DNA of 64,000 nucleotides. Source: Cognatishimia sp. (GTDB taxonomy: Bacteria > Pseudomonadota > Alphaproteobacteria > Rhodobacterales > Rhodobacteraceae). The notes below the pieces were generated by a model that was given only the letters and a program-made list of their open reading frames with translations, ran no database searches and had not been told where the DNA came from. The stretch is from NCBI GenBank assembly GCA_050633405.1, contig JBOEGL010000007.1, positions 184,892-248,891 of the forward strand. The letters are read 5' to 3'. Below are positions 1,400 to 56,148 of this stretch, one piece after another; position 1 is the stretch's first letter, and each line of letters begins with the position of its first letter. Made by a program: the position numbers and the translations under genes.

Positions 1400-1476
1400 G
1401 CCGCCTTAGCTCAGTAGGTTAGAGCGCCTGATTGTGGATCAGGAGGTCCCCCGTTCGAGCCGGGGAGGTGGTACCA
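1400..1476 (+). tRNA. tRNA-His (GUG)
   Basis: Cloverleaf: acceptor GCCGCCT/AGGTGGT, D-arm GCTC..GAGC, anticodon arm CCTGA-TTGTGGA-TCAGG, T-loop GTTCGAG, encoded A-CCA end. Confidence 0.97.
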
Positions 1477-1507
1477 TTTCCCAGCTTTAAATTTGATGAA
1501 ATACCTA

Positions 1508-1571
1508 GATTTGTTCTTGACCCAAATACCCTGGGGAGGCTGAAACGTGTTTTCAGCCGGGGCGAAGCTCC
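1508..1571 (+). repeat. Dispersed structured intergenic repeat, copy 1
   Basis: Core TTTGTTCTTGACCCAAATACC (1510-1530), hairpin GGCTGAAA-CGTGT-TTTCAGCC, terminal GGGGC-GAA-GCTCC. The core recurs at 5371-5391 and 14643-14663 on the minus strand. Confidence 0.85.
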
Positions 1572-1580
1572 TCTCAAGAT

Positions 1581-1874
1581 CTAGTCGACCGTGATGGTTT
1601 GCTTCAGACTGCCGGTCAGTGCGTCAAAAATCAGAATGTGATTGTCTGCTGTGACCACGGCATACCAATCCTTGCCACGGGTAAAGGCCGTAGCTTTGGA
1701 CCCGTCCGGCAAGTCGATGGATGTCGGCATTTCTGGACCAGCGCCATAGAAACGGGTGACAAGCAGGCCAACCACCACTACAAGCCCGCCAATCATCACC
1801 ACCGTCAGCACTGTGATCAACTGGCGCAAAAACCGCAAATTTGCCGGTTCTACCGGTTCAGGAGTGTCATCCAT
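1581..1874 (-). CDS. Small membrane protein (DUF6476-like)
   Basis: One TM helix (LITVLTVVMIGGLVVVVGLLV) followed by a LPDG...AFTRG.DWYAVVT domain. Start at 1874 or 1880. Confidence 0.75.
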   Translation of the reverse strand: MDDTPEPVEPANLRFLRQLITVLTVVMIGGLVVVVGLLVTRFYGAGPEMPTSIDLPDGSKATAFTRGKDWYAVVTADNHILIFDALTGSLKQTITVD

Positions 1875-2904
1875 GGCCACCGCTCATGTTACGTTTCAAA
1901 TTGCGGACAACCCGCCTGCGCGTCTTGATAAAGCCTTGGCGCGCGATGTGCCAGCAGAAGCCGCGCTGTCTCGCACCAGAATGGCGCGGTTGATGGCCGA
2001 CGGTCATGTTAAGGTGAACGGCGCGATTGCCACCGACCCGAAAGCAAAGATCGCCGAGGGGGCTGAAGTGGTGATTGTGGTGCCGGTCGCGGATGAAAGC
2101 CATATCGGCCCTGAAAATATTCCCTTGGATGTTATTTTTGAAGATGACGATCTGATTGTGATCAATAAAAGTGCGGGCATGGTGGTGCATCCGGCCCCTG
2201 GCACGCCTAACGGCACTTTGGTGAATGCGTTATTACATCACTGTGGTGACACGCTGTCTGGGGTGGGCGGATCAAAGCGTCCGGGCATTGTTCACCGGAT
2301 TGATAAGGAAACCTCTGGTCTGTTGGTGGTGGCCAAAACCGATCGTGCTCATCATGGATTGGCGGCGCAATTTGAGAAACACACCGTCGAGCGCTATTAC
2401 AATGCAGTGGTCTATGGGGTGCCTGATGCGCATGATCCCAGATTGCGTGGTGTGCGTGGCGTGAATTTTGAGCCCGGTAATATTATGAAGATCACCACGC
2501 ATTTGGCGCGGCATAAGACCGATCGTCAAAGGCAGGCGGTGTTGTTTGAAGGCGGGCGCCATGCGGTCACTCGCTCGCGCATTGTCGAACCCTTTGGAAC
2601 TCCTGAAGTGGCCTCATTGATCGAATGCTGGTTGGAAACCGGTCGCACGCATCAGATCCGGGTGCATATGACCCATGCGGGTCATAGTTTGATTGGCGAT
2701 CCAACTTATGGCGGGCGGCGGAAGTTATCTGAAAAGGCGTTAAGTGTGCAGGGCGTTCAAGCGGCGCGCAATTTTCCACGTCAGGCACTACATGCGGCGG
2801 TTTTAGGATTTGTACATCCGGTCAGTAAAGAAGATTTGCGGTTTGAGGCACCATTGCCAGAGGACATGACAAACTTGATTGCGGCGCTGCGGAAGCCGAC
2901 CTGA
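1873..2904 (+). CDS. rluD: RluA family 23S rRNA pseudouridine synthase (RluD-like)
   Basis: N-terminal S4 domain, catalytic GIVHRIDKETSG, GRTHQIRVH, RQALHA motifs. Confidence 0.92.
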   Translation: MATAHVTFQIADNPPARLDKALARDVPAEAALSRTRMARLMADGHVKVNGAIATDPKAKIAEGAEVVIVVPVADESHIGPENIPLDVIFEDDDLIVINKSAGMVVHPAPGTPNGTLVNALLHHCGDTLSGVGGSKRPGIVHRIDKETSGLLVVAKTDRAHHGLAAQFEKHTVERYYNAVVYGVPDAHDPRLRGVRGVNFEPGNIMKITTHLARHKTDRQRQAVLFEGGRHAVTRSRIVEPFGTPEVASLIECWLETGRTHQIRVHMTHAGHSLIGDPTYGGRRKLSEKALSVQGVQAARNFPRQALHAAVLGFVHPVSKEDLRFEAPLPEDMTNLIAALRKPT

Positions 2905-3221
2905 GCACGCAAAGCTGACAATAAGCGCCGAATATGCTACATTTGGCAGTGAGGCCTTTTGCCCGGGACCTTCAGTCAAATGGACTGATTTAATTTAGTT
3001 TTCTGAGTTTCGGGCCGATATACAAAGGCAGTGTTTGGGTACAGACAGAATTTCCGTCTGTGGAAATATGCGTAAGCGATATGCGTTTTCGCATAGACTC
3101 TGCACTTTCGCACGCTGTTGAAAGATGTCACAAATTGCACAGCGACGTGAGCGCACTACCCTGTGATTGGCATTATGTGAATGCTGCGTTCACAATTAAT
3201 TAAGAAAAAATTGCTAGCCCG

Positions 3222-3250
3222 CTTGAAAGCCTGTTAGCGCCAACCTATCT
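3222..3250 (+). promoter_or_regulatory. RpoH-type promoter upstream of rpoH
   Basis: CTTGAA-N16-CCTATCT, 37 nt upstream of the ATG; matches the alphaproteobacterial RpoH consensus. Confidence 0.7.
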
Positions 3251-3287
3251 GGATGTTAAGCCTTTAAACATTAAGGGGGACGAGAAG

Positions 3288-4184
3288 ATGAGTAATTATA
3301 AAAATCTCCCGGCACCAACGCCGGAAGGCGGTTTGAACCGCTATATGCAAGAAATTCGGAAGTTCCCGCTGTTGGAACCCGAAGAAGAATACATGCTGGG
3401 CAAAGCCTGGGCCGAAAAAGAAGACACGGAAGCCGCTCATAAGATGGTGACAAGCCATCTGCGTTTGGCGGCCAAGATTGCCATGGGGTACCGTGGCTAT
3501 GGTCTGCCGCAGGCCGAAGTGATTTCCGAGGCCAACGTGGGCCTGATGCAGGCCGTGAAACGCTTTGACCCAGAAAAGGGCTTTCGTCTGGCTACCTATG
3601 CTATGTGGTGGATCCGTGCCTCCATTCAGGAATACGTGCTGCGCAGCTGGTCGATGGTCAAGCTTGGTACAACCTCGGCTCAGAAAAAGCTGTTCTTTAA
3701 TCTGCGTAAAGCCAAAGCCCGTATTGGGGCGCTGGAAGAAGGCGACATGCGTCCGGAAAATGTGCAGCGCATTGCTCATGATTTGGGTGTAACCGAAGAC
3801 GAAGTTGTCAGCATGAACCGCCGTTTGTCCGGTGGCGATGCTTCGCTAAACGCGACGGTCGGCTCCGAAGGCGAAGGCACCATGCAATGGCAGGATTGGC
3901 TGGAAGACGAGGATGCGGATCAGGCGGGCGACTATGAAGCCAAAAATGAGTTGGAAGCGCGCCGTGAGCTTTTGGCCGAGGCTATGGATGTGCTGAACGA
4001 CCGCGAAAAGGACATCTTGGTGCAGCGTCGTCTGCAAGACAAAGTGATCACACTCGAAGAATTGAGTGGTCAGTATGATGTCAGCCGTGAGCGTATTCGT
4101 CAAATCGAAGTGCGCGCGTTTGAAAAACTTCAGGTGCGTATGCGCGCCCTGGCCAGCGACAAAGGCATGCTTGCACGCGCCTAA
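3288..4184 (+). CDS. rpoH: RNA polymerase sigma-32 factor
   Basis: Sigma70 regions 2-4, RpoH box QKKLFFNLRKAK, C-terminal VSRERIRQIE. Confidence 0.97.
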   Translation: MSNYKNLPAPTPEGGLNRYMQEIRKFPLLEPEEEYMLGKAWAEKEDTEAAHKMVTSHLRLAAKIAMGYRGYGLPQAEVISEANVGLMQAVKRFDPEKGFRLATYAMWWIRASIQEYVLRSWSMVKLGTTSAQKKLFFNLRKAKARIGALEEGDMRPENVQRIAHDLGVTEDEVVSMNRRLSGGDASLNATVGSEGEGTMQWQDWLEDEDADQAGDYEAKNELEARRELLAEAMDVLNDREKDILVQRRLQDKVITLEELSGQYDVSRERIRQIEVRAFEKLQVRMRALASDKGMLARA

Positions 4185-4222
4185 ACCTCCCTCGGAGCGC
4201 CGATACCTCCAGCGATCCAAGG

Positions 4223-4252
4223 AAAAGCCCCAGCCTTTTGGCCGGGGCTTTT
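4223..4252 (+). terminator. Intrinsic terminator after rpoH (bidirectional-looking)
   Basis: AAAAGCCCC-AGCCTTTTGGC-CGGGGCTTTT. Confidence 0.75.
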
Positions 4253-4325
4253 GTCGTTTTTGTTGGCTTGTGCGGTCATGGCCAGCTGCTAGTGTTTGCG
4301 CAAACGTAAATTTGTGGAGGGCGTT

Positions 4326-5297
4326 ATGGAAACTGTCAAATGGGGCATTTTAGGAGCCAGTAAGTTTGCCAAGGAACATATGGGCCCAGCCATTCACGCC
4401 GCCGATGGGGCTGAGCTTGTGGCGCTCGCAACGTCTTCGGCAGAAAAAGTCGCGCCCTTTCTGGCGTTCTGTCCAAACCTCAAAACCCATGGCAGCTATG
4501 ATGCATTGTTGGCAGATCCGGAAATCGATGCGGTCTATATCCCATTGCCCAATCACATGCATGTGGAATGGGCCCTAAGAGCCATGGCTGCGGGCAAGCA
4601 TGTGCTTTGCGAAAAGCCGATGGCTTTATGCGCAGATGATTTTGCTAAATTGATCGCGGCCCGGGATGCTTCGGGTTTGCTGGCGGCCGAAGCCTATATG
4701 ATCGCCCATCATCCGCAGTGGCAATATGTGCGGCAATTGTTGGCAGATCACGAGATCGGCACGTTGCGGCATGTGACCGGGGCCTTTTCTTTTAACAATC
4801 AGGATCAACCAGAGAATATCCGTAATAAGAGCGACACAGGTGGCGGGGCACTACGTGATATTGGCGTTTACACGCTGGGTTCGGTGCGCTTGGCGACCGG
4901 GCAAGAGCCATGCGAAGTGGCTGCACGTATACGTTGGGAAAACGCTGTTGATGTTTTCTCGGACGTGCAGGCGCAATTTTCCGGGTTCAGCTATTCGGCC
5001 TATGTCAGCACCCGTATGAAGCAACATCAGGATATGGTGTTTCATGGCAGCCGTGGTCTGATCCGGTTGATTGCACCGTTTAATCCAGGCGTATTTGCCG
5101 AGGGGCAGGTGGTTTTACAGCGGGATGGGCAAGACGATGTCATCCGGCGTTTTACCGGGGTGAACCAATATAGATTACAGGTCGAGGCATTTGGGCGCTC
5201 TGTTCGGGATGGCGTGGCGTACCCCTGCGCTTTGGAGTTTTCGCGCGGCACCCAGAAGATGATGGACCAAGTATTTGCGGTGGCGCGAGATCTGTAA
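4326..5297 (+). CDS. Gfo/Idh/MocA family oxidoreductase
   Basis: WGILGAS Rossmann start, DAVYIPLPNHMH, GKHVLCEKP, GGGALRDIGVY. Confidence 0.92.
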   Translation: METVKWGILGASKFAKEHMGPAIHAADGAELVALATSSAEKVAPFLAFCPNLKTHGSYDALLADPEIDAVYIPLPNHMHVEWALRAMAAGKHVLCEKPMALCADDFAKLIAARDASGLLAAEAYMIAHHPQWQYVRQLLADHEIGTLRHVTGAFSFNNQDQPENIRNKSDTGGGALRDIGVYTLGSVRLATGQEPCEVAARIRWENAVDVFSDVQAQFSGFSYSAYVSTRMKQHQDMVFHGSRGLIRLIAPFNPGVFAEGQVVLQRDGQDDVIRRFTGVNQYRLQVEAFGRSVRDGVAYPCALEFSRGTQKMMDQVFAVARDL

Positions 5298-5313
5298 GTG
5301 GGTCTGTCATGTA

Positions 5314-5341
5314 TTCCAGCGACGTCAAGACGTCGCTGGAA
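5314..5341. terminator. Perfect 13-bp hairpin between convergent genes
   Basis: TTCCAGCGACGTC-AA-GACGTCGCTGGAA. Confidence 0.6.
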
Positions 5342-5344
5342 CGT

Positions 5345-5391
5345 GGCCGAAACGCTGTTTCGGCCCTTTGGGTATTTGGGTCAAGAACAAA
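5345..5391 (-). repeat. Dispersed structured intergenic repeat, copy 3
   Basis: Minus strand reads TTTGTTCTTGACCCAAATACCC (22/22 identical to 1510-1531), then hairpin GGCCGAAA-CAGCG-TTTCGGCC. Confidence 0.85.
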
Positions 5392-5399
5392 GCCGCTGT

Positions 5400-7220
5400 C
5401 TAGGCTTCCATCGCCTCAAGCTCATCGATCATGTCAGAAATCATCGACAGGCCTTTGTCCCAGAACTTTGGATCGCTGGCATCAAGGCCAAAGGGGGCCA
5501 GCAGGTCTTTGTGGTGTTTAGAGCCGCCAGCTTTGAGCATATCAAAGTATTTTTCTTCGAAGTCCTCGCCGCCTTCGGCGTAAACCGCATAGAGCGCGTT
5601 TACCAAGCCGTCGCCAAAGGCATAGGCATAGACGTAGAAGGGCGAATGCACGAAGTGGGGGATGTAAGCCCAAAAGGTGTCATAGCCATCCATAAATTCA
5701 AACGCAGGCCCTAGGCTTTCGGCCTGAACTGACATCCAAAGTGCGTTGATGCCTTCAGGGGTCAATTCGCCATCGGCGCGGGCGTCGTGCAATTTGCATT
5801 CGAAGTCATAAAACGCGATTTGACGCACAACCGTGTTGATCATGTCTTCGACTTTTCCAGCCAACAGCACTTTGCGCTGTTCTTGGGTTTCGGCCTTGTC
5901 CAGCATCTTGCGGAAAGTCAGCATTTCGCCAAAGACAGAGGCGGTTTCCGCCAATGTCAGCGGTGTGGAGGACAGCATTTCGCCCTGTTCCGCAGCCAAT
6001 ACCTGGTGCACCCCATGGCCGAGTTCATGCGCCAGAGTCATCACGTCGCGTGGTTTGCCAAGGTAATTTAGCATCACATAGGGATGTACGTTGGTCACCG
6101 TTGGGTGGGCGAATGCGCCCGGGGCTTTGCCGGGTTTGACCTCGGCGTCGATCCAGCCTTTGGTGAAAAACGGCTCTGCTATCTCGGCCATGCGCGGATC
6201 GAAGGCGGCATAGGCTTCCATTACCGTGCTTTGGGCTTCGCTCCATGGTACAATACGGGTGTCTTCCATGGGCAGCGGCGCGTTGCGGTCCCAAACCTGC
6301 ATGACGTCAAGTCCCAGCCATTTGCGTTTGAGTTCATAATATCGGTGGCTGAGCTTGGGGTAGGCGGCGACAACCGCGTTGCGCAGCGCCTCCACCACTT
6401 CCGGCTCTACATCGTTTGACAAATGCCGCCCGGCCTGTGGTGACGGCATTTTGCGCCAACGGTCCATGACTTCTTTTTCTTTGGCCTGGGTGTTGTGCAC
6501 GCGGGCAAAGGTTTTGATGTTTGCCCCCAGCACGCGGGCGATTTCGCGGGATGCGGCTTCGCGTTTGCTGCGGTCTTGTTCAGTCAGGAAATTCAGGGTG
6601 GCTTCGATGTTCAGCTTTTCGCCTTCCATCTCAAATTCCAACCCGGCAATGGTTTCGTCAAACAGGCGCTCCCATGCGTCGCCCACCACGCCCAGATCGT
6701 GCAGGAACTTTTCCAGCTCGTCAGACAGTTGGTGGGGTTTCATGGCGCGGATGCGATCAAAAACAGGTTTGTAACGTGCTAGATCGGAGTTTTGAGCAAA
6801 CATTGCGGTCAGTTTGTCATCGTCAATGCGGTTCAGTTCCAGAGTGAAAAATACCAGCGGAGTCGAGAAATCTGTCAGTGCCTCTTGCATGTTGGACATA
6901 AATTGTGCGCGTTCTGCGTCGACCGTAACCTGATAATAGCGCAGGCCAGCATAAGACATGATACGGCCAGAAATCTGGCTGATTTTTTCGTTGCGCTGCA
7001 CGCAGGTCAAAAGGCCGGCGGCATCCAGATCGGCCAGTTTATCTTCGTAATCGGCCGCAAATGACGCGCATTCGCCCTCGAGCCACTCTAAGTCTTTGTC
7101 TAGTTCAGGCGCATCTGGGGAGGTGTATAGATCAGATAGATCCCATTCTGGCAGGCCCCCCAATCCTTCACCTCCGGCAGTGGCATTGGCGTCGCGGACG
7201 GGGAAGGGCAGGTTCAGCAT
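5400..7220 (-). CDS. pepF: M3 family oligoendopeptidase F
   Basis: HELGHGVH zinc motif, LAETASVFGE, WAYIPHF..PFYVYAY. Confidence 0.93.
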   Translation of the reverse strand: MLNLPFPVRDANATAGGEGLGGLPEWDLSDLYTSPDAPELDKDLEWLEGECASFAADYEDKLADLDAAGLLTCVQRNEKISQISGRIMSYAGLRYYQVTVDAERAQFMSNMQEALTDFSTPLVFFTLELNRIDDDKLTAMFAQNSDLARYKPVFDRIRAMKPHQLSDELEKFLHDLGVVGDAWERLFDETIAGLEFEMEGEKLNIEATLNFLTEQDRSKREAASREIARVLGANIKTFARVHNTQAKEKEVMDRWRKMPSPQAGRHLSNDVEPEVVEALRNAVVAAYPKLSHRYYELKRKWLGLDVMQVWDRNAPLPMEDTRIVPWSEAQSTVMEAYAAFDPRMAEIAEPFFTKGWIDAEVKPGKAPGAFAHPTVTNVHPYVMLNYLGKPRDVMTLAHELGHGVHQVLAAEQGEMLSSTPLTLAETASVFGEMLTFRKMLDKAETQEQRKVLLAGKVEDMINTVVRQIAFYDFECKLHDARADGELTPEGINALWMSVQAESLGPAFEFMDGYDTFWAYIPHFVHSPFYVYAYAFGDGLVNALYAVYAEGGEDFEEKYFDMLKAGGSKHHKDLLAPFGLDASDPKFWDKGLSMISDMIDELEAMEA

Positions 7221-7355
7221 AGGGGCCTCTTGGGTCAGGAATTCTGTTAGGTGTCAGATAGGCAGAGCAGGGGGCAAGGTGCAAGAGGCGGAGTGTTTTA
7301 AACTTGGTTTTGACGGGGCAGCGGTTAAGTTGAAGAGAGAGCAGGAGGCAGTCCT

Positions 7356-8192
7356 TTGAGATTTGTACGATTTGGTGAGATTGGGCAGGAACTACCGGGT
7401 ATTTTGGATGCCCAGGGGCAGGTTCGCAACCTCTCGGGGGTGGTCCCGGATATCGCAGGTGACGTTTTGGGGCACTTGGGGGATATCGACGTTGGTGAAT
7501 TGCCAGTTGTTCCTGGGAATCCGCGTTTGGGGCCCCCGGTGGGCGACACGGGTAAATTCATTTGCATCGGCTTGAATTACCGGGATCATGCCAAAGAGGC
7601 GGGCATGCCCATTCCTGAAGAGCCCATTGTGTTTATGAAGGCGACCAGCGCCATTGGCGGGGCAAATGACCCCATCGTGTTGCCGCTTGGATCAGAGAAA
7701 GGCGACTGGGAAGTTGAGCTGGGGGTGGTGATCGGCAAGACCGCCAAATATGTCAGCGAAGCTGAAGCGTTGGATTATGTGGCGGGCTATTGCGCCGTCA
7801 ACGATGTGTCAGAACGTGGGTTTCAGATAGAACGCGGTGGGCAATGGACCAAGGGCAAAAGCTGTGACAGCTTTGGCCCGCTGGGGCCTTGGTTGGTGAC
7901 GCCCGATGAAATTGGCGATCCGCAGGCCCTGGACATGTCCTTGTGGATCAATGGTGATTTGCGCCAAAGCGGATCGACATCGACAATGATCTTTCCTGTG
8001 GCCTATGTGATTTCCTACCTCAGCCAAATGATGCGCTTGGAGCCGGGTGATGTGATTGCAACCGGGACGCCGCCCGGAGTGGGCATGGGCATGAAACCAC
8101 CGCTATATTTGCAAGCTGGGGACGTGGTCGAACTGGAAATCCAAGGCTTGGGGCGTCAGCGTCAACGCGTCATGCGGGACGAAGTGCTGTAA
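7356..8192 (+). CDS. Fumarylacetoacetate hydrolase family protein
   Basis: GKFICIGLNYRDH, DWEVELGVVIG, NDVSER, GDVIATGTPPGVG. TTG start with GGAGG RBS. Confidence 0.92.
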   Translation: MRFVRFGEIGQELPGILDAQGQVRNLSGVVPDIAGDVLGHLGDIDVGELPVVPGNPRLGPPVGDTGKFICIGLNYRDHAKEAGMPIPEEPIVFMKATSAIGGANDPIVLPLGSEKGDWEVELGVVIGKTAKYVSEAEALDYVAGYCAVNDVSERGFQIERGGQWTKGKSCDSFGPLGPWLVTPDEIGDPQALDMSLWINGDLRQSGSTSTMIFPVAYVISYLSQMMRLEPGDVIATGTPPGVGMGMKPPLYLQAGDVVELEIQGLGRQRQRVMRDEVL

Positions 8193-8198
8193 GATACT

Positions 8199-9152
8199 CT
8201 ATGATCTGGGCGCTAAAAACAGCGCTGCAATCTTGCGGGTCACATCGCCACGTATGGTTGGATTGTCCATCAATACTTCGTGTTCGCCTGCTGGCACCAT
8301 GTCTAATGTGCCATCCTCCCATGATGTCATGCGGCTGGTAATTGCACCTGGGCAAACGATGTTTTCATCGGTGCCAAGAAAGGTAAGACATGGGATTTGA
8401 GGGGCAGGGTGGCGGCGCAGATCGCTGCATTCGCGCAATGCCTGTGACAGCCAGCGCATGGTTGGGCCGCCAATCATCAGCTGTGGCTGAGCGCGCGCAT
8501 GCGATTGCAGCCGGGCATACATGTCCCGGTCTTTGGTCAGTTGGTTGTCTTCAAAGGCGGTGTCCAAAACATAGGTTTCATGTTTGGTGCCGGGGGCCAA
8601 CCAATGACCGATGCCTAAAAGGCTGGCAATTCCGCTGAGTAATACGGCTATCGGGCGCAAAACCTTGTTGAGACCGATGTCCCACATGGGGCCGGTGAAG
8701 GCTGCGGCTTGCACTGGCAGGCCGTCATAAAGCGCGCGCAAACCGATGCAGCCACCCATGGAGTGGCCCATTAGAAAATAGGGTTCTGGCAAATTCAGTG
8801 CTTTGGCGCTGCGCAACATGGCGGCAACATCAAGCTGATAATCTTGGAAATTGACAACATGGCCCGACATCACGTTGCCGGTCAGCCGATCCGCCAAACC
8901 CTGACCGCGCCAGTCGATGGAAAATGTGGCCAGACCTAAATCTGCAAACCGTCCTGCGATTTCTGCATATTTTTCAATATACTCCGTGCGCCCCGGAAAC
9001 AGCAAAACCGTGCCTTTGGTCTTGCCTGCGGCATCGTTGCTTTGCCAAGCGGCCACGCGCAGCCGCACCCCGTCTGTTGCCAAGGTCCAATAGGCCTCGG
9101 CTTCTGGTTCACCTGAAATAACCGGAAAAAACGGCGCGCGGTCCAGACCCAT
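8199..9152 (-). CDS. Alpha/beta hydrolase (lysophospholipase L2-like)
   Basis: PGRTEYIEKY, DWRGQGLA, GHSMGG nucleophile elbow, HEVLM. Confidence 0.9.
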   Translation of the reverse strand: MGLDRAPFFPVISGEPEAEAYWTLATDGVRLRVAAWQSNDAAGKTKGTVLLFPGRTEYIEKYAEIAGRFADLGLATFSIDWRGQGLADRLTGNVMSGHVVNFQDYQLDVAAMLRSAKALNLPEPYFLMGHSMGGCIGLRALYDGLPVQAAAFTGPMWDIGLNKVLRPIAVLLSGIASLLGIGHWLAPGTKHETYVLDTAFEDNQLTKDRDMYARLQSHARAQPQLMIGGPTMRWLSQALRECSDLRRHPAPQIPCLTFLGTDENIVCPGAITSRMTSWEDGTLDMVPAGEHEVLMDNPTIRGDVTRKIAALFLAPRS

Positions 9153-9442
9153 TACGACAGTGCCGACGCAAGTTTCATTGCCATGCCCATGTCACCATCA
9201 ACAGACAGCTTACCGCTCATGAAGGCAGAGGTTGGGTTGATATCCCCTTCAAGGATAGCCTGAAACACATCTGCGTCAGCCGTCAGCGTTACATCTGCAT
9301 CGTCATCGCTGGCTCGCACACCTTCGCCGTCGATGATAAGCGCGCCTTCGCCTTCGATTACAAATTTTGCAGATCCATCTATCCCGGCGTCTCCGAGTTT
9401 GGCTGCCAGTGCGTCTACCGCTGCCGCTACAATATCGCTCAT
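9152..9442 (-). CDS. SCP2 sterol-binding domain protein
   Basis: P..AFMSGKLSVDGDMGMAMKL C-terminal SCP2 signature. Confidence 0.9.
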   Translation of the reverse strand: MSDIVAAAVDALAAKLGDAGIDGSAKFVIEGEGALIIDGEGVRASDDDADVTLTADADVFQAILEGDINPTSAFMSGKLSVDGDMGMAMKLASALS

Positions 9443-9525
9443 TCGTAATCTTCCTTTGAATTGCCGCTTATTTCCCCCGCGCCGGACTAGTAAATCCCGA
9501 TGCGCAGGTTACATTCAAGAGTGTT

Positions 9526-10086
9526 ATGCGCTTGTTATCTATTAATCTCAAACTTGTCGTTGCGGCAGCCTTTGTTACCCTCATGTGCGGTGTGGGCAGC
9601 GTGAATGCAAGCGACCGATTGACGGATCTCTTGGCCGAGCTCAAATCCGCCGAAGCTATTGAAGCGGTGAAAATCACCAAGGAAATTCGTTTGGAGTGGG
9701 AGAAATCCGGATCGGCCGCTGCGGATCTGTTGCTGAGACGTGGGCGGGATGCAGTGGAAACCGGTGATTTTGATGCGGCCATAGAGCATTTTTCAGCTTT
9801 GGTGGATCACGCGCCAGAATTTGCAGAGGGCTGGGTCGCGCGGGCAAGCGCCTTTGTGCAGATTGGGCTTTTGGGGCCGGCGGTGTCGGATTTAGAACAG
9901 GCTTTAGAGCTGAATCCAATGCATTTTGAAGCCATAAACGGTCTTGGCGTGATCTTAGAGATGATTGACCGCCCTGAGGAAGCCTATGAAGCCTATCTGT
10001 TGGTCATGGCTATACATCCGACCCATCCGGTCGTAACACAGGCTTTACAACGTCTAGAGCCCATGGCCAAAGGCCAAAAACTCTGA
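9526..10086 (+). CDS. Exported tetratricopeptide repeat protein
   Basis: Signal peptide; TPR-like A..DLEQALELNP.HFEAINGLG. Confidence 0.85.
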   Translation: MRLLSINLKLVVAAAFVTLMCGVGSVNASDRLTDLLAELKSAEAIEAVKITKEIRLEWEKSGSAAADLLLRRGRDAVETGDFDAAIEHFSALVDHAPEFAEGWVARASAFVQIGLLGPAVSDLEQALELNPMHFEAINGLGVILEMIDRPEEAYEAYLLVMAIHPTHPVVTQALQRLEPMAKGQKL

Positions 10087-10101
10087 AAAATTAAAAGGCG
10101 C

Positions 10102-12903
10102 ATGGACATGTCCTCAGCAGGGCGGATCACAGCGGTTTTGGGGCCGACCAATACAGGTAAAACCCATTTGGCGATTGAGCGGATGCTGGGACATCGCACG
10201 GGGGTCATTGGCCTGCCGCTGCGACTGTTGGCACGCGAAGTCTATGACAAAATCGTTGCGGCGCGGGGGCCAAACGTCGTTGCGCTAATGACCGGCGAAG
10301 AGCGGATTGTGCCGCCGCGGGCGCAATATTGGGTCTGTACGGTCGAATCTATGCCAGAGGGCATGGGTTGTGATTTTCTGGCCGTGGATGAAATCCAGCT
10401 TTGTGCAAACCCGGAACGGGGGCATGTGTTTACCGACCGGTTGTTGCGGGCACGGGGGCTGCATGAAACCATGTTTATGGGCTCTGACACGATGCGCGGG
10501 GCGATTGCGGCGTTGGTGCCCGGCGTGCAATTTGATCGGCGAGAACGCATGTCGACCCTTAGCTATGCAGGCAGTCGCAAGATCAGCCGCATGCAGCCGC
10601 GCAGCGCGATTGTCGGGTTTTCTGTTGATAACGTCTATGCCATCGCAGAATTGCTGAAACGCCAAAAGGGCGGGGCGGCTGTGGTGATGGGTGCGCTAAG
10701 CCCGCGCACCCGGAATAAACAGGTCGAGTTGTATCAGAACGGCGATGTTGACTTTCTGGTGGCCACAGATGCGATCGGCATGGGCCTGAATCTCGACATC
10801 GACCACGTGGCCTTTTCCAGTACCCGTAAATTTGATGGCCGTCGCATGCGCGAAATCATGCCGAACGAGTTGGCGCAGATCGCCGGCCGCGCTGGGCGGG
10901 GCATGAGCCACGGAACCTTTGGCGTCACCGGAGAGGCGCGCCCCTTGGAGGATGAGGTGGCGCAGGCGATCATGGATCATCGCTTTACGCCCCTAAATAA
11001 GCTGAATTGGCGCAACGCCGCGTTGAATTTTGCCACGGTTGAAGCTTTGATCCATTCGCTTCAGGTTGCACCGCAAGACATGTTGCTGATGAAGTCCCGC
11101 GAAGCAGATGACCTGATGGTGCTTAATACATTGGCGCGTGACGCTGAAATTCGCGCCCGCGCAACCGATCCGCAATCTGTGCGCCTGTTATGGGATGTTT
11201 GTCGGGTGCCAGATTTTCGGGGGATCAGCCATAACGAGCATGCCAGCCTCTTGCAGAGCCTCTTTGGGTACCTACATCAACGGGGAACTGTGCCCTTTGA
11301 TTGGTTCGCGCGACAGGTGAAACGAATCGATCGGGTTGACGGAAATATTGATGCGTTGTCAAAAAGATTGGCATTTATCCGCACTTGGACTTATGTGGCG
11401 CAGCGAAATGGTTGGATTGATGACGAAAACCATTGGCGCGGCGAGACGCGCGCTGTAGAAGATCGCCTGTCAGACGCATTACATGCGAAACTGACGGAAA
11501 AATTTGTGGACCGCCGAACGTCTGTTTTACTCCGGCGGCTCAAACAGAAGGAGGCCCTTTTGGCCGATGTGAATGATAAGGGTGAAGTGACCGTCGAAGG
11601 TGAATTCGTAGGTCGCTTGGATGGGTTCCGGTTTCAGGCTGACAAAAGCGCTGAAGGCGCTGAGGCCAAGACGTTGCGTCAGGCAAGCTTGGCAGCTTTG
11701 GCACCGCAATTCCATTTGCGGGCGGATCGCTTTTACAACGCACCCGATACTGAAATTGATTACACCGAACAGGGTGGCCTGATGTGGGGCGAATATGCGG
11801 TTGGCAAATTGGTGGCCGGCGCGGACCCACTGAAACCATCTGTGCAAGTTTTTGTTGATGATGAAGCCGGTCCTGACGTTGCGCAAAAAGTAGAGCGCCG
11901 TTTGCAGCATTTCATTGATCGCAAGATTGCGGCGCTTTTTGAACCGCTGTTGAACCTGTCACGTGACGAAGAACTGTCAGGTTTGGCCCGCGGTTTTGCG
12001 TTTCGCATGGTTGAAGCGCTGGGGGTGATCCCACGCGGTGACGTTGCCGTCGAAGTGAAAGAGTTGGACCAAGATGCCCGTGGCGCATTGCGCAAACATG
12101 GCATTCGCTTTGGTCAGTTCACGATCTTTATGCCCCTGCTTTTGAAGCCAGCACCGACCCGCTTGCGGTTGGTTTTGTGGTCCTTGCACAAAAACCTGGA
12201 TGTGTTTCCAGAATCGCCACCTCCGGGCTTGGTGACCGTGCCTGCGGGTGAACAAACACCGGCAGGATACCACGCGATGGCGGGCTATCGTGCCGCAGGC
12301 GAGCGTGCGATTCGTATTGATATGCTGGAACGCCTTGCAGATATGCTGCGGTCTGAGGACAGCCGTGGGGGCTTTGAAGCCAACCCGGATATGTTGTCGA
12401 TCACCGGCATGACACTAGAGCAATTCGCAGCGCTTATGGATGGGCTGGGATATAAGGCTGAAAAAGGCGAGCGCGCCAAGGTGAAGCCTGTGGTTGCAGC
12501 CACAGCCGAAGCGGATGCTGCAGCCGATGCATCGGCGGAAACGCCAGCCGCTGACGCCGCAGATACTCCACAAGAGGACGCAGCAACGCCCGTTGAAGAG
12601 GTCGAGGCTGGAGAGGCCGATGCCGCACCAGCAGAGCCCGAGGTCGAGGTGTTTTATACCTTTACATGGGGTGGCCGCGCCAACCGCCAGAACAACCGCA
12701 GAGGTGGCCAACAAGGCGCTCGTCGTGACGGCAATGCAGGTCAGAGCAAGCCAGGTGGAAAACCTCGGGGCAAGCCACGTGGGAAAGGCAAGCCCGGTCA
12801 GGACGGTGCTAAGAAATACAGCGCCCGTCCACCCAAAAAAGAAAAGCCAATTGATCCGGACAATCCGTTTGCTGCGGCTTTGATGGGGCTGAAAACCAAG
12901 TGA
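10102..12903 (+). CDS. Suv3-like SF2 helicase (MgpS-like)
   Basis: GPTNTGKT Walker A, VDEIQL, VATDAIGMGLN, QIAGRAGR; acidic linker and basic C-terminal tail. Confidence 0.88.
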   Translation: MDMSSAGRITAVLGPTNTGKTHLAIERMLGHRTGVIGLPLRLLAREVYDKIVAARGPNVVALMTGEERIVPPRAQYWVCTVESMPEGMGCDFLAVDEIQLCANPERGHVFTDRLLRARGLHETMFMGSDTMRGAIAALVPGVQFDRRERMSTLSYAGSRKISRMQPRSAIVGFSVDNVYAIAELLKRQKGGAAVVMGALSPRTRNKQVELYQNGDVDFLVATDAIGMGLNLDIDHVAFSSTRKFDGRRMREIMPNELAQIAGRAGRGMSHGTFGVTGEARPLEDEVAQAIMDHRFTPLNKLNWRNAALNFATVEALIHSLQVAPQDMLLMKSREADDLMVLNTLARDAEIRARATDPQSVRLLWDVCRVPDFRGISHNEHASLLQSLFGYLHQRGTVPFDWFARQVKRIDRVDGNIDALSKRLAFIRTWTYVAQRNGWIDDENHWRGETRAVEDRLSDALHAKLTEKFVDRRTSVLLRRLKQKEALLADVNDKGEVTVEGEFVGRLDGFRFQADKSAEGAEAKTLRQASLAALAPQFHLRADRFYNAPDTEIDYTEQGGLMWGEYAVGKLVAGADPLKPSVQVFVDDEAGPDVAQKVERRLQHFIDRKIAALFEPLLNLSRDEELSGLARGFAFRMVEALGVIPRGDVAVEVKELDQDARGALRKHGIRFGQFTIFMPLLLKPAPTRLRLVLWSLHKNLDVFPESPPPGLVTVPAGEQTPAGYHAMAGYRAAGERAIRIDMLERLADMLRSEDSRGGFEANPDMLSITGMTLEQFAALMDGLGYKAEKGERAKVKPVVAATAEADAAADASAETPAADAADTPQEDAATPVEEVEAGEADAAPAEPEVEVFYTFTWGGRANRQNNRRGGQQGARRDGNAGQSKPGGKPRGKPRGKGKPGQDGAKKYSARPPKKEKPIDPDNPFAAALMGLKTK

Positions 12904-12905
12904 TT

Positions 12906-12942
12906 AAAATGGGGCGTGCAGTTGATGCTGTACGCCCTTTTT
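12906..12942 (+). terminator. Intrinsic terminator after the helicase gene
   Basis: GGGCGTGCAG-TTGATG-CTGTACGCCC-TTTTT. Confidence 0.65.
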
Positions 12943-12970
12943 GTATCCAGAGCTTGGGGATAACTCTCTC

Positions 12971-13348
12971 GTGAACGACGCCCCGCCCAAACTACGGATA
13001 GATAAATGGCTATGGCACGCCCGTTTCTTTAAGACACGCAGCTTGGCTGCCAAAATTGTCACGACTGGCAAGGTGCGGGTGAACGCTCAAAAGATTGCCA
13101 AATCCAGCTTTTTGATCAGCCCAGGCGATGTGCTGACTTTTGCCCAGGCCTCAGAAATCCGAGTCGTGCGCGTCGAAGCCCTGGGAACGCGGCGGGGGCC
13201 TGCCTCAGAAGCACAGCTTTTGTACTTTGATATGAGTGAACCCAAAGAAAAAGTTCCGGATGCACCGCGATTTGAAGGAAAAGGACGTCCAAGCAAGCGA
13301 GATCGTCGCAATCTCACCCTTATGAAAAACAGGCAGCTTGAAGATTAG
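12971..13348 (+). CDS. S4 RNA-binding domain protein (Hsp15/HslR-like)
   Basis: RIDKWLWHARFFKTRSLA...GRPSKRDRR; GTG start assumed. Confidence 0.88.
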   Translation: MNDAPPKLRIDKWLWHARFFKTRSLAAKIVTTGKVRVNAQKIAKSSFLISPGDVLTFAQASEIRVVRVEALGTRRGPASEAQLLYFDMSEPKEKVPDAPRFEGKGRPSKRDRRNLTLMKNRQLED

Positions 13349-13398
13349 CGCGCCTTGAATTAGCTAGGCTCTAACAATTCTGTATATCGAGACGCCCC

Positions 13399-13737
13399 AT
13401 GACCTATGTTGTTACTGACAACTGCATTGCTTGCAAATACACCGACTGCGTTGAAGTCTGCCCGGTGGATTGTTTTTACGAAGGCGAAAATACGCTGGTG
13501 ATTCACCCAGATGAATGCATCGACTGCGGTGTATGTGAGCCAGAATGCCCTGCGGACGCGATCCGCCCGGACACCGAGCCGGATATGGAAAAATGGGTCG
13601 AGTTTAACCGAAAATACGCAGATCAGTGGCCGGTTATTATCTCCAAGAAAGATCCAATGCCTGACGCAGAAGAGCGCGACGGTGAAGCGGGTAAAATGGA
13701 GAAGTATTTCTCTGAAGCACCAGGCGAAGGCGGGTAA
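13399..13737 (+). CDS. fdxA: 7Fe ferredoxin FdxA
   Basis: [19 protein letters not shown]...[12 protein letters not shown]. Confidence 0.95.
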
Positions 13738-14022
13738 ACGCGGCAACGCGTTGGGGGCTTGTCGATTTGTAGTGTAAACTTGGTTTAGCAAGCTGACTTT
13801 AGAGGGAAACACGAGGTTTCCCTTGAGGCGCTTCTATTGTTGCGAATTTTGTGTTATATTTGCGTTACAAATGAATAGAAACACCTGATGCCATCCCGAG
13901 AGCTAAGGCGATTTGCCCGGCCTAGGATGGTTTTTTGCGCCAAAGTGACCTCTGCTGCGGAAATTTGATTCTCCGCGCGCTGGGTTTATCAGCTTTTGGG
14001 GCGCTCTGTTAGGAAGGACGAC

Positions 14023-14532
14023 ATGAGCAAGTCGAAGAAAAATGAGTTTCGCCCGGACGATTTTGTTGTCTACCCAGCGCATGGCGTTGGGCAGATTGTA
14101 TCCATTGAAGAACAGGAAATCGCCGGAATTGAGCTAGAACTTTTTGTTATTTCTTTTGAGAAAGACAAGATGACGTTGCGGGTGCCTACCCACAAAGCCA
14201 CAGAAATTGGCATGCGCGGGCTGAGTTCGCCGGATGTGATTAGTCAGGCGATGAAAACCCTGAAGGGCAAGGCCAAGGTCAAGCGTGCCATGTGGTCGCG
14301 TCGGGCGCAGGAATATGAACAAAAGATCAACTCTGGGGATCTGATAGCGATTGCCGAAGTTGTGCGCGACTTGCACCGCACTGACGATCAGCGCGAGCAA
14401 AGCTATTCTGAGCGTCAGTTGTATGAAGCGGCCCTTGAACGCCTGACACGTGAAGTGGCAGCGGTTGCCGGTGGCGACGAAGTTCTGGCGGCCAAGCAGG
14501 TGGATGAGGTTTTGACCGCCCGCGCTGCCTAA
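14023..14532 (+). CDS. carD: CarD family transcription factor
   Basis: VVYPAHGVG, WSRRAQEYEQKINSG, SYSERQLYEAA; AGGAAGG RBS. Confidence 0.95.
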   Translation: MSKSKKNEFRPDDFVVYPAHGVGQIVSIEEQEIAGIELELFVISFEKDKMTLRVPTHKATEIGMRGLSSPDVISQAMKTLKGKAKVKRAMWSRRAQEYEQKINSGDLIAIAEVVRDLHRTDDQREQSYSERQLYEAALERLTREVAAVAGGDEVLAAKQVDEVLTARAA

Positions 14533-14558
14533 GGGTATTCAGATCTTATAAAATGGAG

Positions 14559-14588
14559 CCGCTCAGATCTGTCTGGGCAGTTTTTTTT
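14559..14588 (+). terminator. Intrinsic terminator after carD
   Basis: GCTCAGA-TCTG-TCTGGGC followed by T8. Confidence 0.7.
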
Positions 14589-14665
14589 GGGGGGGGGGGC
14601 TTTGCCCCCATCGGTGAATCCGAGTTTCACCGCTTCCCCCAGGGTATTGGGATCAAGAACAAATC
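14589..14665 (-). repeat. Dispersed structured intergenic repeat, copy 2
   Basis: Minus strand reads GATTTGTTCTTGATCCCAATACCCTGGGG (27/29 identical to 1508-1536), hairpin CGGTGAA-ACTCGGA-TTCACCG, terminal GGGGGC-AAA-GCCCCC. Confidence 0.85.
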
Positions 14666-14702: not shown

Positions 14703-15251
14703 TTAGCCCGGGCTTTCCATCACCACGGCCAGCACGGCAGTTGTGGTCAGGGCCTCATAGGCGTGTGGCACATCAGCTGGAAAGCGATAGTAATCGCCGG
14801 GCAAAAGCTGTTCCAGTTGGTCAGTCGGTCCGGTCTGGACCTCTCCAGAAATCACATAGACATGTTCGACGGTGCCTTTTGGATGGGCCTCGGCTTTTCG
14901 CGTTGACCCTTGTCGCAGCACAACGCGATAAAGGTCGCGGATGCGGCCAGGGGGGGATTTATCCAGCAATTGGGTCTGATAGTCAGCCATTTCAGAGGCC
15001 ACGCCTTGCCCGTCTTCGGCGCGGATCAGTTTGATCTCGTTTGATGGCATCTCAAATAGATGGCTGAAGGGCACACCCAGAACGTTCGCGATGGCCCAAA
15101 GGGTTTCAATGCTGGGATTGCCCTGACCTGATTCAAGTTGAGACAGTGTGGATTTCGCCAGTCCGGCCTGTGTTGCTAAGGCTGACAGGCTGAGCCCAAC
15201 ACGGTGTCTTTCACGTTGGATCGCGCGGGCAATTAGGACTGACGGGGTCAT
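14703..15251 (-). CDS. XRE-family HTH + cupin transcriptional regulator
   Basis: LSALATQAGLAKSTLSQLESGQGNPSIETLW HTH; H..GTVEH.YV..G...F.AD.PH.Y cupin. Confidence 0.9.
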   Translation of the reverse strand: MTPSVLIARAIQRERHRVGLSLSALATQAGLAKSTLSQLESGQGNPSIETLWAIANVLGVPFSHLFEMPSNEIKLIRAEDGQGVASEMADYQTQLLDKSPPGRIRDLYRVVLRQGSTRKAEAHPKGTVEHVYVISGEVQTGPTDQLEQLLPGDYYRFPADVPHAYEALTTTAVLAVVMESPG

Positions 15252-54993: not shown

Positions 54994-56148
54994 ATGCAAT
55001 TTCGTCTCACCGGGGCACAGGTTCTCATGGCAGATGCCTTGCAGGATCACGACCTGAACATCGCCCACGGGCGGATCAGCGACCAGCCGCAATCCCGCGA
55101 GATTGACCTGTCGGGCTTTCAGATCCTACCGGCCATTGTTGACATCCATGGTGATGGGTTTGAACGTCATCTGGCCCCCCGGCGCGGCGCGATGAAAGAT
55201 CTTGGTCAGGGTCTGATATCTGCAGATGCGGAACTGGCCAGCAATGGCATCGCCACCGCCACACTGGCGCAGTTTTACAGCTGGGAAGGCGGCATGCGCG
55301 GTCCGGAATTTGCCGCACGTTTCCTCAAGGCCCACGACAAAGCCAAGCCCCACATGCTGACCGACACGCTGATACAGCTGCGGTTTGAAACCCATATGCT
55401 GGATCACTACGCCGCCTTTGCCGAACTGGTACAGGCCCATCAGGTCCCCTATGTGGTCTTTAACGATCATCTGCCCCACGCTGCTCTGGCCAAAGGCAAA
55501 CGCCCTCCGCGCCTCACCGGTCAGGCCCTCAAAGGCGGTCGCAGCCCCGAAGCGCACCTGGCCCTCTTGCAAGCGCTCTATGCGCGGCGCGATGAGGTGC
55601 CCGCCCAACTGGCCCGGCTTGCGGCAGGCTTTGCACAGAACAATATCCGCATGGGCAGCCACGATGATGCCACCCGCGCCCAACGTCAAAGCTTTCAAAC
55701 CATGGGGCTGACCCTGTCAGAATTCCCCGAAACCTCAGAGGCCGCCACCGCCACACATGACTTTGGCGGCCATATCATTCTGGGCGCGCCAAATGTGGTG
55801 CGCGGCGGCTCCCATTCTGGCAATGTGGCGGCTCAGGATCTGATCGCCGACGGGCTCTGTGACGCGCTGGCCTCTGATTATCACTATCCGGCACTGCGGC
55901 AGGCGGTCTTCAAACTGTCAGACGAAGCTGTGCTGAGTTTTGCCGCGGCCTGGGCGCTGATCTCTAGCGGGTCTGCTAAACTGCTAGGCCTGACCGATCG
56001 CGGCACGCTCAGCAAAGGGCAACGCGCCGACTTCATTGTTCTTGATCCAAATACCCGTCGCATCGAGGCCACATTCAGCAACGGTCATGTCAGTTATTTG
56101 GCCGGCGAAGCGGCGCGACGTTTTTTTGCACTCACGGAAGCCCCATAA
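54994..56148 (+). CDS. phnM: PhnM-like amidohydrolase (alpha-D-ribose 1-methylphosphonate 5-triphosphate diphosphatase paralog)
   Basis: DIHGDGFERH, SHDD, GAPNVVRGGSHSGN, LASDYHYP, RADF. Confidence 0.85.
   Translation: MQFRLTGAQVLMADALQDHDLNIAHGRISDQPQSREIDLSGFQILPAIVDIHGDGFERHLAPRRGAMKDLGQGLISADAELASNGIATATLAQFYSWEGGMRGPEFAARFLKAHDKAKPHMLTDTLIQLRFETHMLDHYAAFAELVQAHQVPYVVFNDHLPHAALAKGKRPPRLTGQALKGGRSPEAHLALLQALYARRDEVPAQLARLAAGFAQNNIRMGSHDDATRAQRQSFQTMGLTLSEFPETSEAATATHDFGGHIILGAPNVVRGGSHSGNVAAQDLIADGLCDALASDYHYPALRQAVFKLSDEAVLSFAAAWALISSGSAKLLGLTDRGTLSKGQRADFIVLDPNTRRIEATFSNGHVSYLAGEAARRFFALTEAP

Follow-up and report, generated by a model that had tools for sequence, protein, structure and literature searches.

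Repetitive extragenic palindromic (REP) sequences and the bacterial interspersed mosaic elements (BIMEs) of Enterobacteriaceae and Pseudomonas are short extragenic repeats with GC-rich hairpins, which occur in tens to hundreds of copies per genome, combine their modules as mosaics and prefer gene ends. Their palindromic units have a species-specific consensus, a case of concerted evolution reportedly described by Gilson et al. in 1987. A repeat superfamily that shares all of these traits was found in a stretch of 64,000 nucleotides (nt) from a Cognatishimia sp. draft genome of 3.6 Mb and 53.7% GC (G000); this stretch, G000:C7:184892-248891, is referred to as the window. The superfamily consists of mosaic, hairpin-bearing extragenic repeats of the general REP/BIME kind, without the drive of a REP-associated tyrosine transposase (RAYT) or other Y1 HUH enzyme. 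Unlike REP sequences, it has neither a RAYT/Y1 gene nor the GTAG or CGTC head of an imperfect palindrome; its most conserved part is a non-palindromic, AT-rich core of 21 nt that lies outside the hairpin and has a free 3-nt centre, and two to three core subfamilies share the same hairpin tails. The family is apparently undescribed, as neither Rfam 15 nor the full-text literature, searched with motif strings included, yielded a description of it.

Other known systems resemble the repeats in part. Head-to-head inverted doublets with a short spacer are typical of REPINs (REP doublets; Bertels and Rainey 2011, PMC3116915), but doublets make up a small minority here (~6% of units), are often of mixed family and have no cognate RAYT. 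REPINs are reported to persist vertically at orthologous sites (10.1101/2024.10.14.618302), and to that extent the Rhodobacteraceae repeats, which stay at orthologous sites by vertical inheritance, are like them. The closest analogy in layout is BIME-1/RIP of E. coli, where REPs flank a site for integration host factor (IHF) and an asymmetric, AT-rich module resembling a protein site thus stands beside hairpins; the core described here does not fit the IHF consensus WATCAANNNNTTR. As a candidate in its own right, an IHF site was rejected since the core has no match to this consensus on either strand, and the best alignment, GATCAAGAACAAA (reverse strand, TCC variant), is without TTR and has its T in the variable centre. 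By eye, no consensus for sigma-70, sigma-54, IHF, CtrA, LexA, DnaA, parS/Noc or Irr fits the core. A single copy, kept across genera, forms an in-frame, translated linker of xdhB, which recalls Rickettsia palindromic elements and intragenic REPs, but only 2 of 94 copies are intragenic and the units are much shorter than the Rickettsia elements. Correia elements of Neisseria and pneumococcal BOX/RUP are likewise small, structured, modular, intergenic and without a transposase of their own; they differ in their length (100-200 nt, against 25-85 nt here), and the present units lack terminal inverted repeats and any target duplication, TA or other. The palindrome-associated elements (PATE) of IS200/IS605 differ further: here there is no Y1 transposase, hairpins lie on one side only and strand bias is inconsistent (28/36 in one family, 20/39 in the other, no flip in a second species, G001).

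In a genome-wide alignment the core of family 1 is bipartite, TTGTKCTTGA-N3-AAATACCC, with N3 unconstrained. G000 contains 46 exact copies (22 on the + strand and 24 on the - strand) and 46-49 copies overall, while the reversed control pattern occurs 0 times. A sister family in the same genome, family 2, has the core TTCAYYTTTC-N3-AAATACTC in ~45 copies, and its tails are exactly the three tails of family 1. Across the superfamily the core is an asymmetric 21-nt sequence composed of a pyrimidine-rich 10-nt half, three free positions and the octamer AAATAYYC. The tail is always on one fixed side of the core; the sequence upstream is unconserved, and the units therefore have no promoter of their own. 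Tail a begins with YGGGG-(T)GA, continues with hairpin 1, which has 9 bp and is topped by GAAAC...GTTTC, and then reads GA-GGGGC-loop-GCCCC (hairpin 2). Tail b is the CGCCGNAGGC mini-hairpin, N1-CGCCG-N2-AGGC; its positions N1 and N2 are complementary in every case (T:A, G:C or C:G). Tail c is CAAAW followed by locus-specific sequence. Over both families, 45 units have tail a, 19 tail b and 30 tail c or another. Compensatory double changes were found at 8/9 pairs of hairpin 1 of tail a among 26 paralogues, and also between orthologues; inspection of the listed family-1 sequences revealed no covariation of N3 with any tail position.

A unit either stands alone or is part of a head-to-head dimer, in which the spacer measures 5-12 nt and the partners often come from the two different families. 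G000 has 3 such doublets among its 94 units, and in G001 the close doublets number at least 4; their predicted fold is a long hairpin. Alignments of all copies contained no terminal inverted match and no conserved upstream sequence, and filled and empty orthologous sites, the spacers of which align poorly, gave no target-site duplication. A sequence-only reading of the window had proposed an unannotated family of short, structured intergenic repeats with a non-palindromic core, different from classical miniature inverted-repeat transposable elements. The family is real and the core is indeed non-palindromic; the lack of terminal inverted repeats and target duplications agrees with the last point. 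Gathering and permissive scans found nothing like it in Rfam: with Rfam 15 the only match in the window above the gathering threshold is a tRNA, and the best sub-threshold match on copy 3 reaches 18 bits against a cut-off of 70 bits.

The superfamily is restricted to Rhodobacteraceae. Of the 14 species examined in the genus, only G000 (46 copies), its sister species G005 (49) and G010 (5) have the exact family-1 pattern. A generalised pattern is found in 13/14 of these species with 25-125 copies each, and in 62/151 genera of the same GTDB family (Rhodobacteraceae) with up to ~100 copies each, controls being near 0. It is at chance level in ~165 other alphaproteobacterial families. The family-1 motif is also present in NZ_JAUORX010000002 of Cognatishimia sp. 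1_MG-2023; the scan of public genome contigs was dominated by chance matches of the 17-base pattern, and a search of a plasmid collection with the consensus unit gave no match.

Each genome has two to three subfamilies, within which a given 5' decamer of the core goes together with a given 3' octamer; G000 and G001 have two core subfamilies and G011 has three. Those of G001, G002 and G009 are TTCATCTTGC..AAATACTC and TTTCTCTTGC..AAATATCC; G011 has TTCACCTTTG and TTCTTCTTTG with ..ACTC, plus TTCTTTTTGG..ATCC; and G010 has TTTTTCTTGA..AAATACCT. One species of the genus, G013 (99% completeness), is without a single copy from any subfamily and is a natural negative control in the search for a trans-acting factor. 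This genome also has no match to a query with the C-terminal part of xdhB and no synteny around pepF.

Constraint on the core was assessed with 49 family-1 copies ascertained in G005 only, the flanks of which were mapped onto G000. The exact pattern, with all 17 fixed positions intact, is present at 43/49 of these sites in G000, and 3 more are near-exact; of the others, 1 is replaced by a family-2 unit and 2 are in rearranged spacers. Ungapped identity between the two species is 0.71 in N3, 0.64 past tail position +13 and 0.60 in the flank preceding the core. At 0.71 per site, 17 intact positions would be expected at ~0.3% of sites (~0.15 of 49) and were observed at 88%, which means that the core is held by strong constraint, homogenisation or both. 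The constraint on the copies is roughly 100-fold. The elements are vertically inherited and kept at orthologous sites, with a near-invariant core while N3 and flanks drift. Turnover is seen as well: the pepF and tRNA-His sites differ across the genus in being empty or filled and in having inverted or doubled units, and whole elements have been swapped at C14:51.2 kb (family 1 in G005, family 2 in G000) and at C1:139976 (tail b vs tail a). Rather than three copies without empty sites, there are many copies, and relatives have empty and differently filled orthologous sites.

One site lies within a gene for xanthine dehydrogenase:

G000:C14:53047-55395, - strand: xdhB, with a reverse-oriented family-1 unit in frame at C14:54176-54265

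The unit is placed between RRLNFY and TPYGQ and is translated as the linker AEGGPSAPPGEAKLPHPPEGILLKNN of XdhB. Inserts occupy this very point in about half of 86 genera; in some genera a different type of insert (GTGRRFGAAHSP) is found there. Both within the genus and across genera, the xdhB inserts share the idiosyncratic hairpin-2 loop GGGGGGCTGTCTGCCCCCC and hence descend from one ancient insertion. The core at this site differs between lineages: TTGTTCTTGA..AAATACCC (family 1) in G000 and G005, TTTTTCCTGA..AAATACCT (..ACCT) in G010, TTTCTCTTGC..AAAT(G/A)TCC (Y type) in G001 and G009, TTCACCTTTT..AAATACTC (..ACTC) in G003 and TTCTTCTTTG..AAATACTC (..ACTC) in G011. In G000/G005, G001/G009 and G011 it is the subfamily that is abundant among the intergenic copies of the same genome; the match rests on two other observed copies in G010 and on one in G003. 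The tRNA-His site has the same lineage-specific core pattern. Given one ancient insertion in which each lineage has its own core, the core evolves in concert in situ. N3 of the xdhB unit is CAG in G001, G009, G011 and G004, so that N3 and the hairpin loop are kept while both half-sites change. The pattern leans towards a stepwise tracking of changing specificity and not towards wholesale replacement of a patch, although whole-unit swaps occur elsewhere. Since the xdhB mRNA reads the unit in the direction in which the hairpin precedes the U-rich tract, the site argues against an efficient terminator.

The window contains four copies of the 21-mer TTTGTTCTTGAYCCMAATACC, against 0.01 expected from dinucleotide shuffles: at 1510-1530 (+), 5371-5391 (-) and 14643-14663 (-), and with one mismatch at 56035-56055 (+). 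The bipartite cores and their surroundings are as follows.

1400..1476, + strand: tRNA-His(GTG) (ARAGORN, Rfam RF00005), ending 33-34 nt upstream of copy 1
1486..1506, + strand: possible, uncertain degenerate core-like 21-mer TTTAAATTTGATGAAATACCT, in tandem 4 nt before copy 1
1511..1531, + strand: core of copy 1, family 1, TTGTTCTTGA-CCC-AAATACCC
1532..1573, + strand: tail of copy 1, class a, with G-run, hairpin 1 and a second G-run with imperfect hairpin 2
1581-1880, - strand: DUF6476 gene, facing copy 1
4296-5297, + strand: gene for a MocA-type oxidoreductase, facing copy 2
5314..5341, - strand: 12-bp hairpin TTCCAGCGACGTC-TT-GACGTCGCTGGAA, between copy 2 and the end of the MocA-type gene
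5345..5366, - strand: GAAAC/GTTTC hairpin of copy 2, GGGCCGAAAC-AGC-GTTTCGGCC, after CAAA
5370..5390, - strand: core of copy 2, family 1, TTGTTCTTGA-CCC-AAATACCC, beginning 9 nt past the pepF stop codon
5400-5402: stop codon of pepF, the gene preceding copy 2
13996-14532, + strand: carD, facing copy 3
14589..14641, - strand: tail of copy 3, class a, with G-run, hairpin 1 (14611-14633) and hairpin 2 GGGGGCAAAGCCCCC (14595-14609)
14642..14662, - strand: core of copy 3, family 1 with one deviation, TTGTTCTTGA-TCC-CAATACCC
14703-14705: stop codon of an XRE/cupin regulator, the gene preceding copy 3
56036..56056, + strand: copy 4, exact family-1 consensus core TTGTTCTTGA-TCC-AAATACCC, in the 3' end of a PhnM-like amidohydrolase gene (54994-56148)

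Hairpin 1 of copy 1 (1538-1558) is GGCTGAAAC-GTG-TTTTCAGCC, and its stem is kept in the G005 orthologue, in which N3 is AAC. The G005 orthologue of copy 2 is TTGTGCTTGA-TCC-AAATACCC, and that of copy 3 is canonical, TTGTTCTTGA-TCA-AAATACCC. The core-like 21-mer before copy 1 matches 13/16 fixed positions, the 99th percentile of the background being 12, and may be an older, decayed core; as a trace of repeated addition, such stacked tandem cores come down to this single weak case. The hairpin at 5314..5341 does not repeat elsewhere and is missing from the orthologous spacer of relatives; it is probably the terminator of the locus itself, outside the repeat. The tail of copy 3 ends in a C11/A8 homopolymer (G11/T8 on the + strand, window 14570-14600). 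The T8 run and a hairpin at 14561-14578 resemble a carD terminator, so repeat and terminator share sequence at this end.

The sequence-only reading had located the first three copies exactly. It described them as lying between convergent gene ends, each in the sense of the preceding gene, which holds for these three, and 8-40 nt after the 3' end of that gene, a range that accommodates the gaps of 33, 8 and 39 nt for copies 1, 2 and 3. The pairing of its similarity values was mistaken: the 22-nt identity (TTTGTTCTTGACCCAAATACCC) assigned to copies 1 and 3 belongs to copies 1 and 2, for which 27/29 had been given, and copies 1 and 3 match at 28/30. The genome has 46 exact copies plus ~45 of the sister family, far more than 'three copies in 13 kb' conveys. 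The remnant suggested at 14532-14545 matches 14/21 of the full core, overlaps the stop codon of carD and is unsupported because its score is within the background range.

Copy 4 is translated as (F)IVLDPNT(R) near the C-terminus of the PhnM-like protein. In every species of the genus, PhnM has ADL(I/V)(I/V)LDPxTRRIEAT as a native motif; the PhnM DNA of relatives matches the core at only 14-16/21 positions, and the exact 21-mer is found in G000 and G005 alone, which are identical over 46 nt in this region. Copy 4 is either a similar coding stretch that was drawn into the repeat family, by capture or conversion, or a coincidence with odds of roughly 1e-4. Elsewhere in the window, a gene for an MmcB-like PD-(D/E)XK nuclease (598-1062, +) lies with ArsR, SRPBCC-like and DUF6324 genes and tRNA-His in a segment (G000:C7:183822-186421) bracketed by two outward-facing family-1 units, C7:183822 (-) and window 1511 (+); there is no sign that this arrangement is relevant.

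By crude longest-ORF (open reading frame) gene calls, 90 of the 94 units of G000 are intergenic and 4 coding; two of the latter calls are spurious ORFs and the two real ones are xdhB and the PhnM-like gene. Convergent spacers hold 31 copies (34% vs 19% background) and divergent spacers 13 (14% vs 25%). The 46 copies in tandem spacers are divided equally into 23 co-oriented with the genes and 23 opposite, and the rule that each copy is oriented like the gene preceding it is thereby reduced to a local coincidence of the first three. An orientation-specific RNA role for the core is unlikely. Family 2 cores are on the G-poor (lagging) strand in 28/36 cases in G000 (p = 0.001), family 1 cores in 20/39; the counterpart of family 2 in G001 is distributed 41 + vs 22 - with no flip along the complete chromosome. 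Contig C5 of G000 has a switch of GC skew near 760 kb, probably the terminus. Stretches of 200-400 kb are free of copies (G001:C1 316-521 kb and 868-1131 kb; G005:C1 0-421 kb), and clustering is modest, with 20 adjacent pairs at <5 kb in G000 vs 11 expected.

Taken as a REP/BIME-like mosaic repeat, the superfamily has an even chance, in our judgement, of having as its core a DNA-level recognition site of a putative co-evolving factor. The core would then be recognised by a lineage-specific trans-acting factor and would not be an oriented RNA signal. The candidate factor would be a DNA-binding or nicking protein, possibly a guide RNA, and all sites would either co-evolve with its specificity or be homogenised by it through short-patch templated repair. 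The hairpins would be a separate structural module under selection for its ability to pair, be it in RNA or in DNA of cruciform or single-stranded form. A number of points weigh against this proposal. No trans-acting factor for the core was found, and no gene is consistently flanked by copies; segments bracketed by closely spaced copies contain housekeeping genes only and nothing transposase-like. Self-BLAST of the assembly for a parent insertion sequence gave almost no repeats of >=400 bp, and a crude six-frame scan for reverse transcriptase motifs (PQG..SP/YxDD), a weak test of rewriting by a diversity-generating retroelement, gave no match. The counts of placement and orientation depend on the crude gene calls. 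The strand bias of family 2 in G000 would hint at a single-strand mechanism, although family 1 and G001 do not reproduce it, and whole-element swaps at orthologous sites fit mobile-element turnover. Strong conservation with lineage-specific cores could come from gene conversion alone, without host function, and the hairpins may have an RNA role. A more specific form of the proposal, possible to our minds and on the whole doubtful, would make the core the cis-site of a Rhodobacteraceae-specific recognition system (a two-headed protein or a guide RNA) that keeps ~50-125 sites per genome matched; upon a shift of specificity, or its duplication into two to three specificities, every site would follow in place, the one in xdhB included.

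It is unlikely that the repeats are selfish and without host function, as relics of bursts of a non-autonomous mobile element that are alike only via gene conversion or re-insertion at hot spots. Such an origin would account for subfamilies with linked diagnostic positions, as in transposon subfamilies, for the variable pepF and tRNA-His sites, for the whole-element swaps and for the zero copies of G013. It agrees poorly with the near absence of gain or loss between G000 and G005 (43-46/49 sites common), with a 21-nt core that has a unique upstream flank and is too short for ordinary homologous conversion, and with the stepwise look of the xdhB site, where N3 and the loop outlast the half-sites; neither a transposase nor a parent element was found. 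We consider it improbable that the elements act in RNA at gene ends, with hairpins that stabilise mRNA 3' ends or, on the reverse strand, an intrinsic terminator of the form hairpin-GRGUAUUU(U) in which the core gives the U-rich tract. The enrichment in convergent spacers and the covariation of the hairpins are in its favour, and the reverse strand does read as a GC hairpin followed by GRGUAUUU, also in class c (copy 2: GGCCGAAAC..GTTTCGGCC-CUUUGGGUAUUUGG), so that a head-to-head dimer would terminate both genes of a convergent pair. Yet 36/90 intergenic copies, namely the 23 co-oriented ones in tandem spacers and the 13 in divergent spacers, are not read by any gene in the terminator direction, a consensus terminator scan does not call the units, 17 invariant positions are unnecessary for a U-tract, and about half of the genera have the xdhB copy, placed in terminator direction, within a frame that looks essential; the lineage-specific switching of cores is left unexplained. 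The mobile 3'-UTR RNA element that the sequence-only reading had considered is unsupported in view of the even split of tandem orientations and the 13 divergent copies.

Operators of an ordinary transcription-factor regulon are very improbable. A strongly conserved site of two halves around 3 free nt, retained in orthologous places, is what such a regulon would have, but the copies are under-represented in divergent (promoter) regions and over-represented where gene ends converge, their neighbours are functionally unrelated (tRNA-His, pepF, carD, the bc1 complex, valS, argG), one copy lies inside xdhB and the motif differs between species of one genus. The last alternative, a substrate of a HUH single-strand transposase of the REP/RAYT or IS200/IS605 (PATE) type, had been raised from the fixed motif adjoining hairpins, and the lagging-strand preference of family 2 would suit it. 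It is largely refuted and retains hardly any credibility. A profile search for Y1_Tnp (PF01797) in the 14 genomes of the genus and 30 selected genomes gave no match in 14/14 of the former (G000 and G005 included) and none in 17/19 high-copy genomes of other genera, with matches in the remaining 2/19 and in the positive controls (E. coli, Caulobacter, Deinococcus and others). Moreover, the GTAG or CGTC head is missing, family 1 has no strand bias and the complete chromosome of G001 has no strand flip.

Most of the understanding of REP-type repeats comes from their RAYT enzymes, and here an abundant system without RAYT is found in a dominant family of the ocean. Its unusual traits are that an asymmetric AT-rich site is the most conserved part, that positions are stable and that the core changes in concert in place, even within a gene. 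The ~100 unannotated loci per genome can mislead gene calling through over-extended ORFs, the in-frame linker of xdhB and the core-mimicking C-terminus of PhnM. With a zero-copy species, two to three subfamilies per genome and the xdhB 'fossil' as natural controls, the Rhodobacteraceae provide a system in which to ask how dispersed repeats stay alike and whether they serve their host, and they raise the question of what it is that recognises the core and how ~100 sites of one genome come to change in step. If a family-specific recognition system does keep these sites matched, this would be a RAYT-independent concerted evolution of dispersed short repeats, and it would point to a genome-wide function, such as the organisation of chromosome or supercoils at gene ends, or to a new short-patch activity that rewrites sequence.

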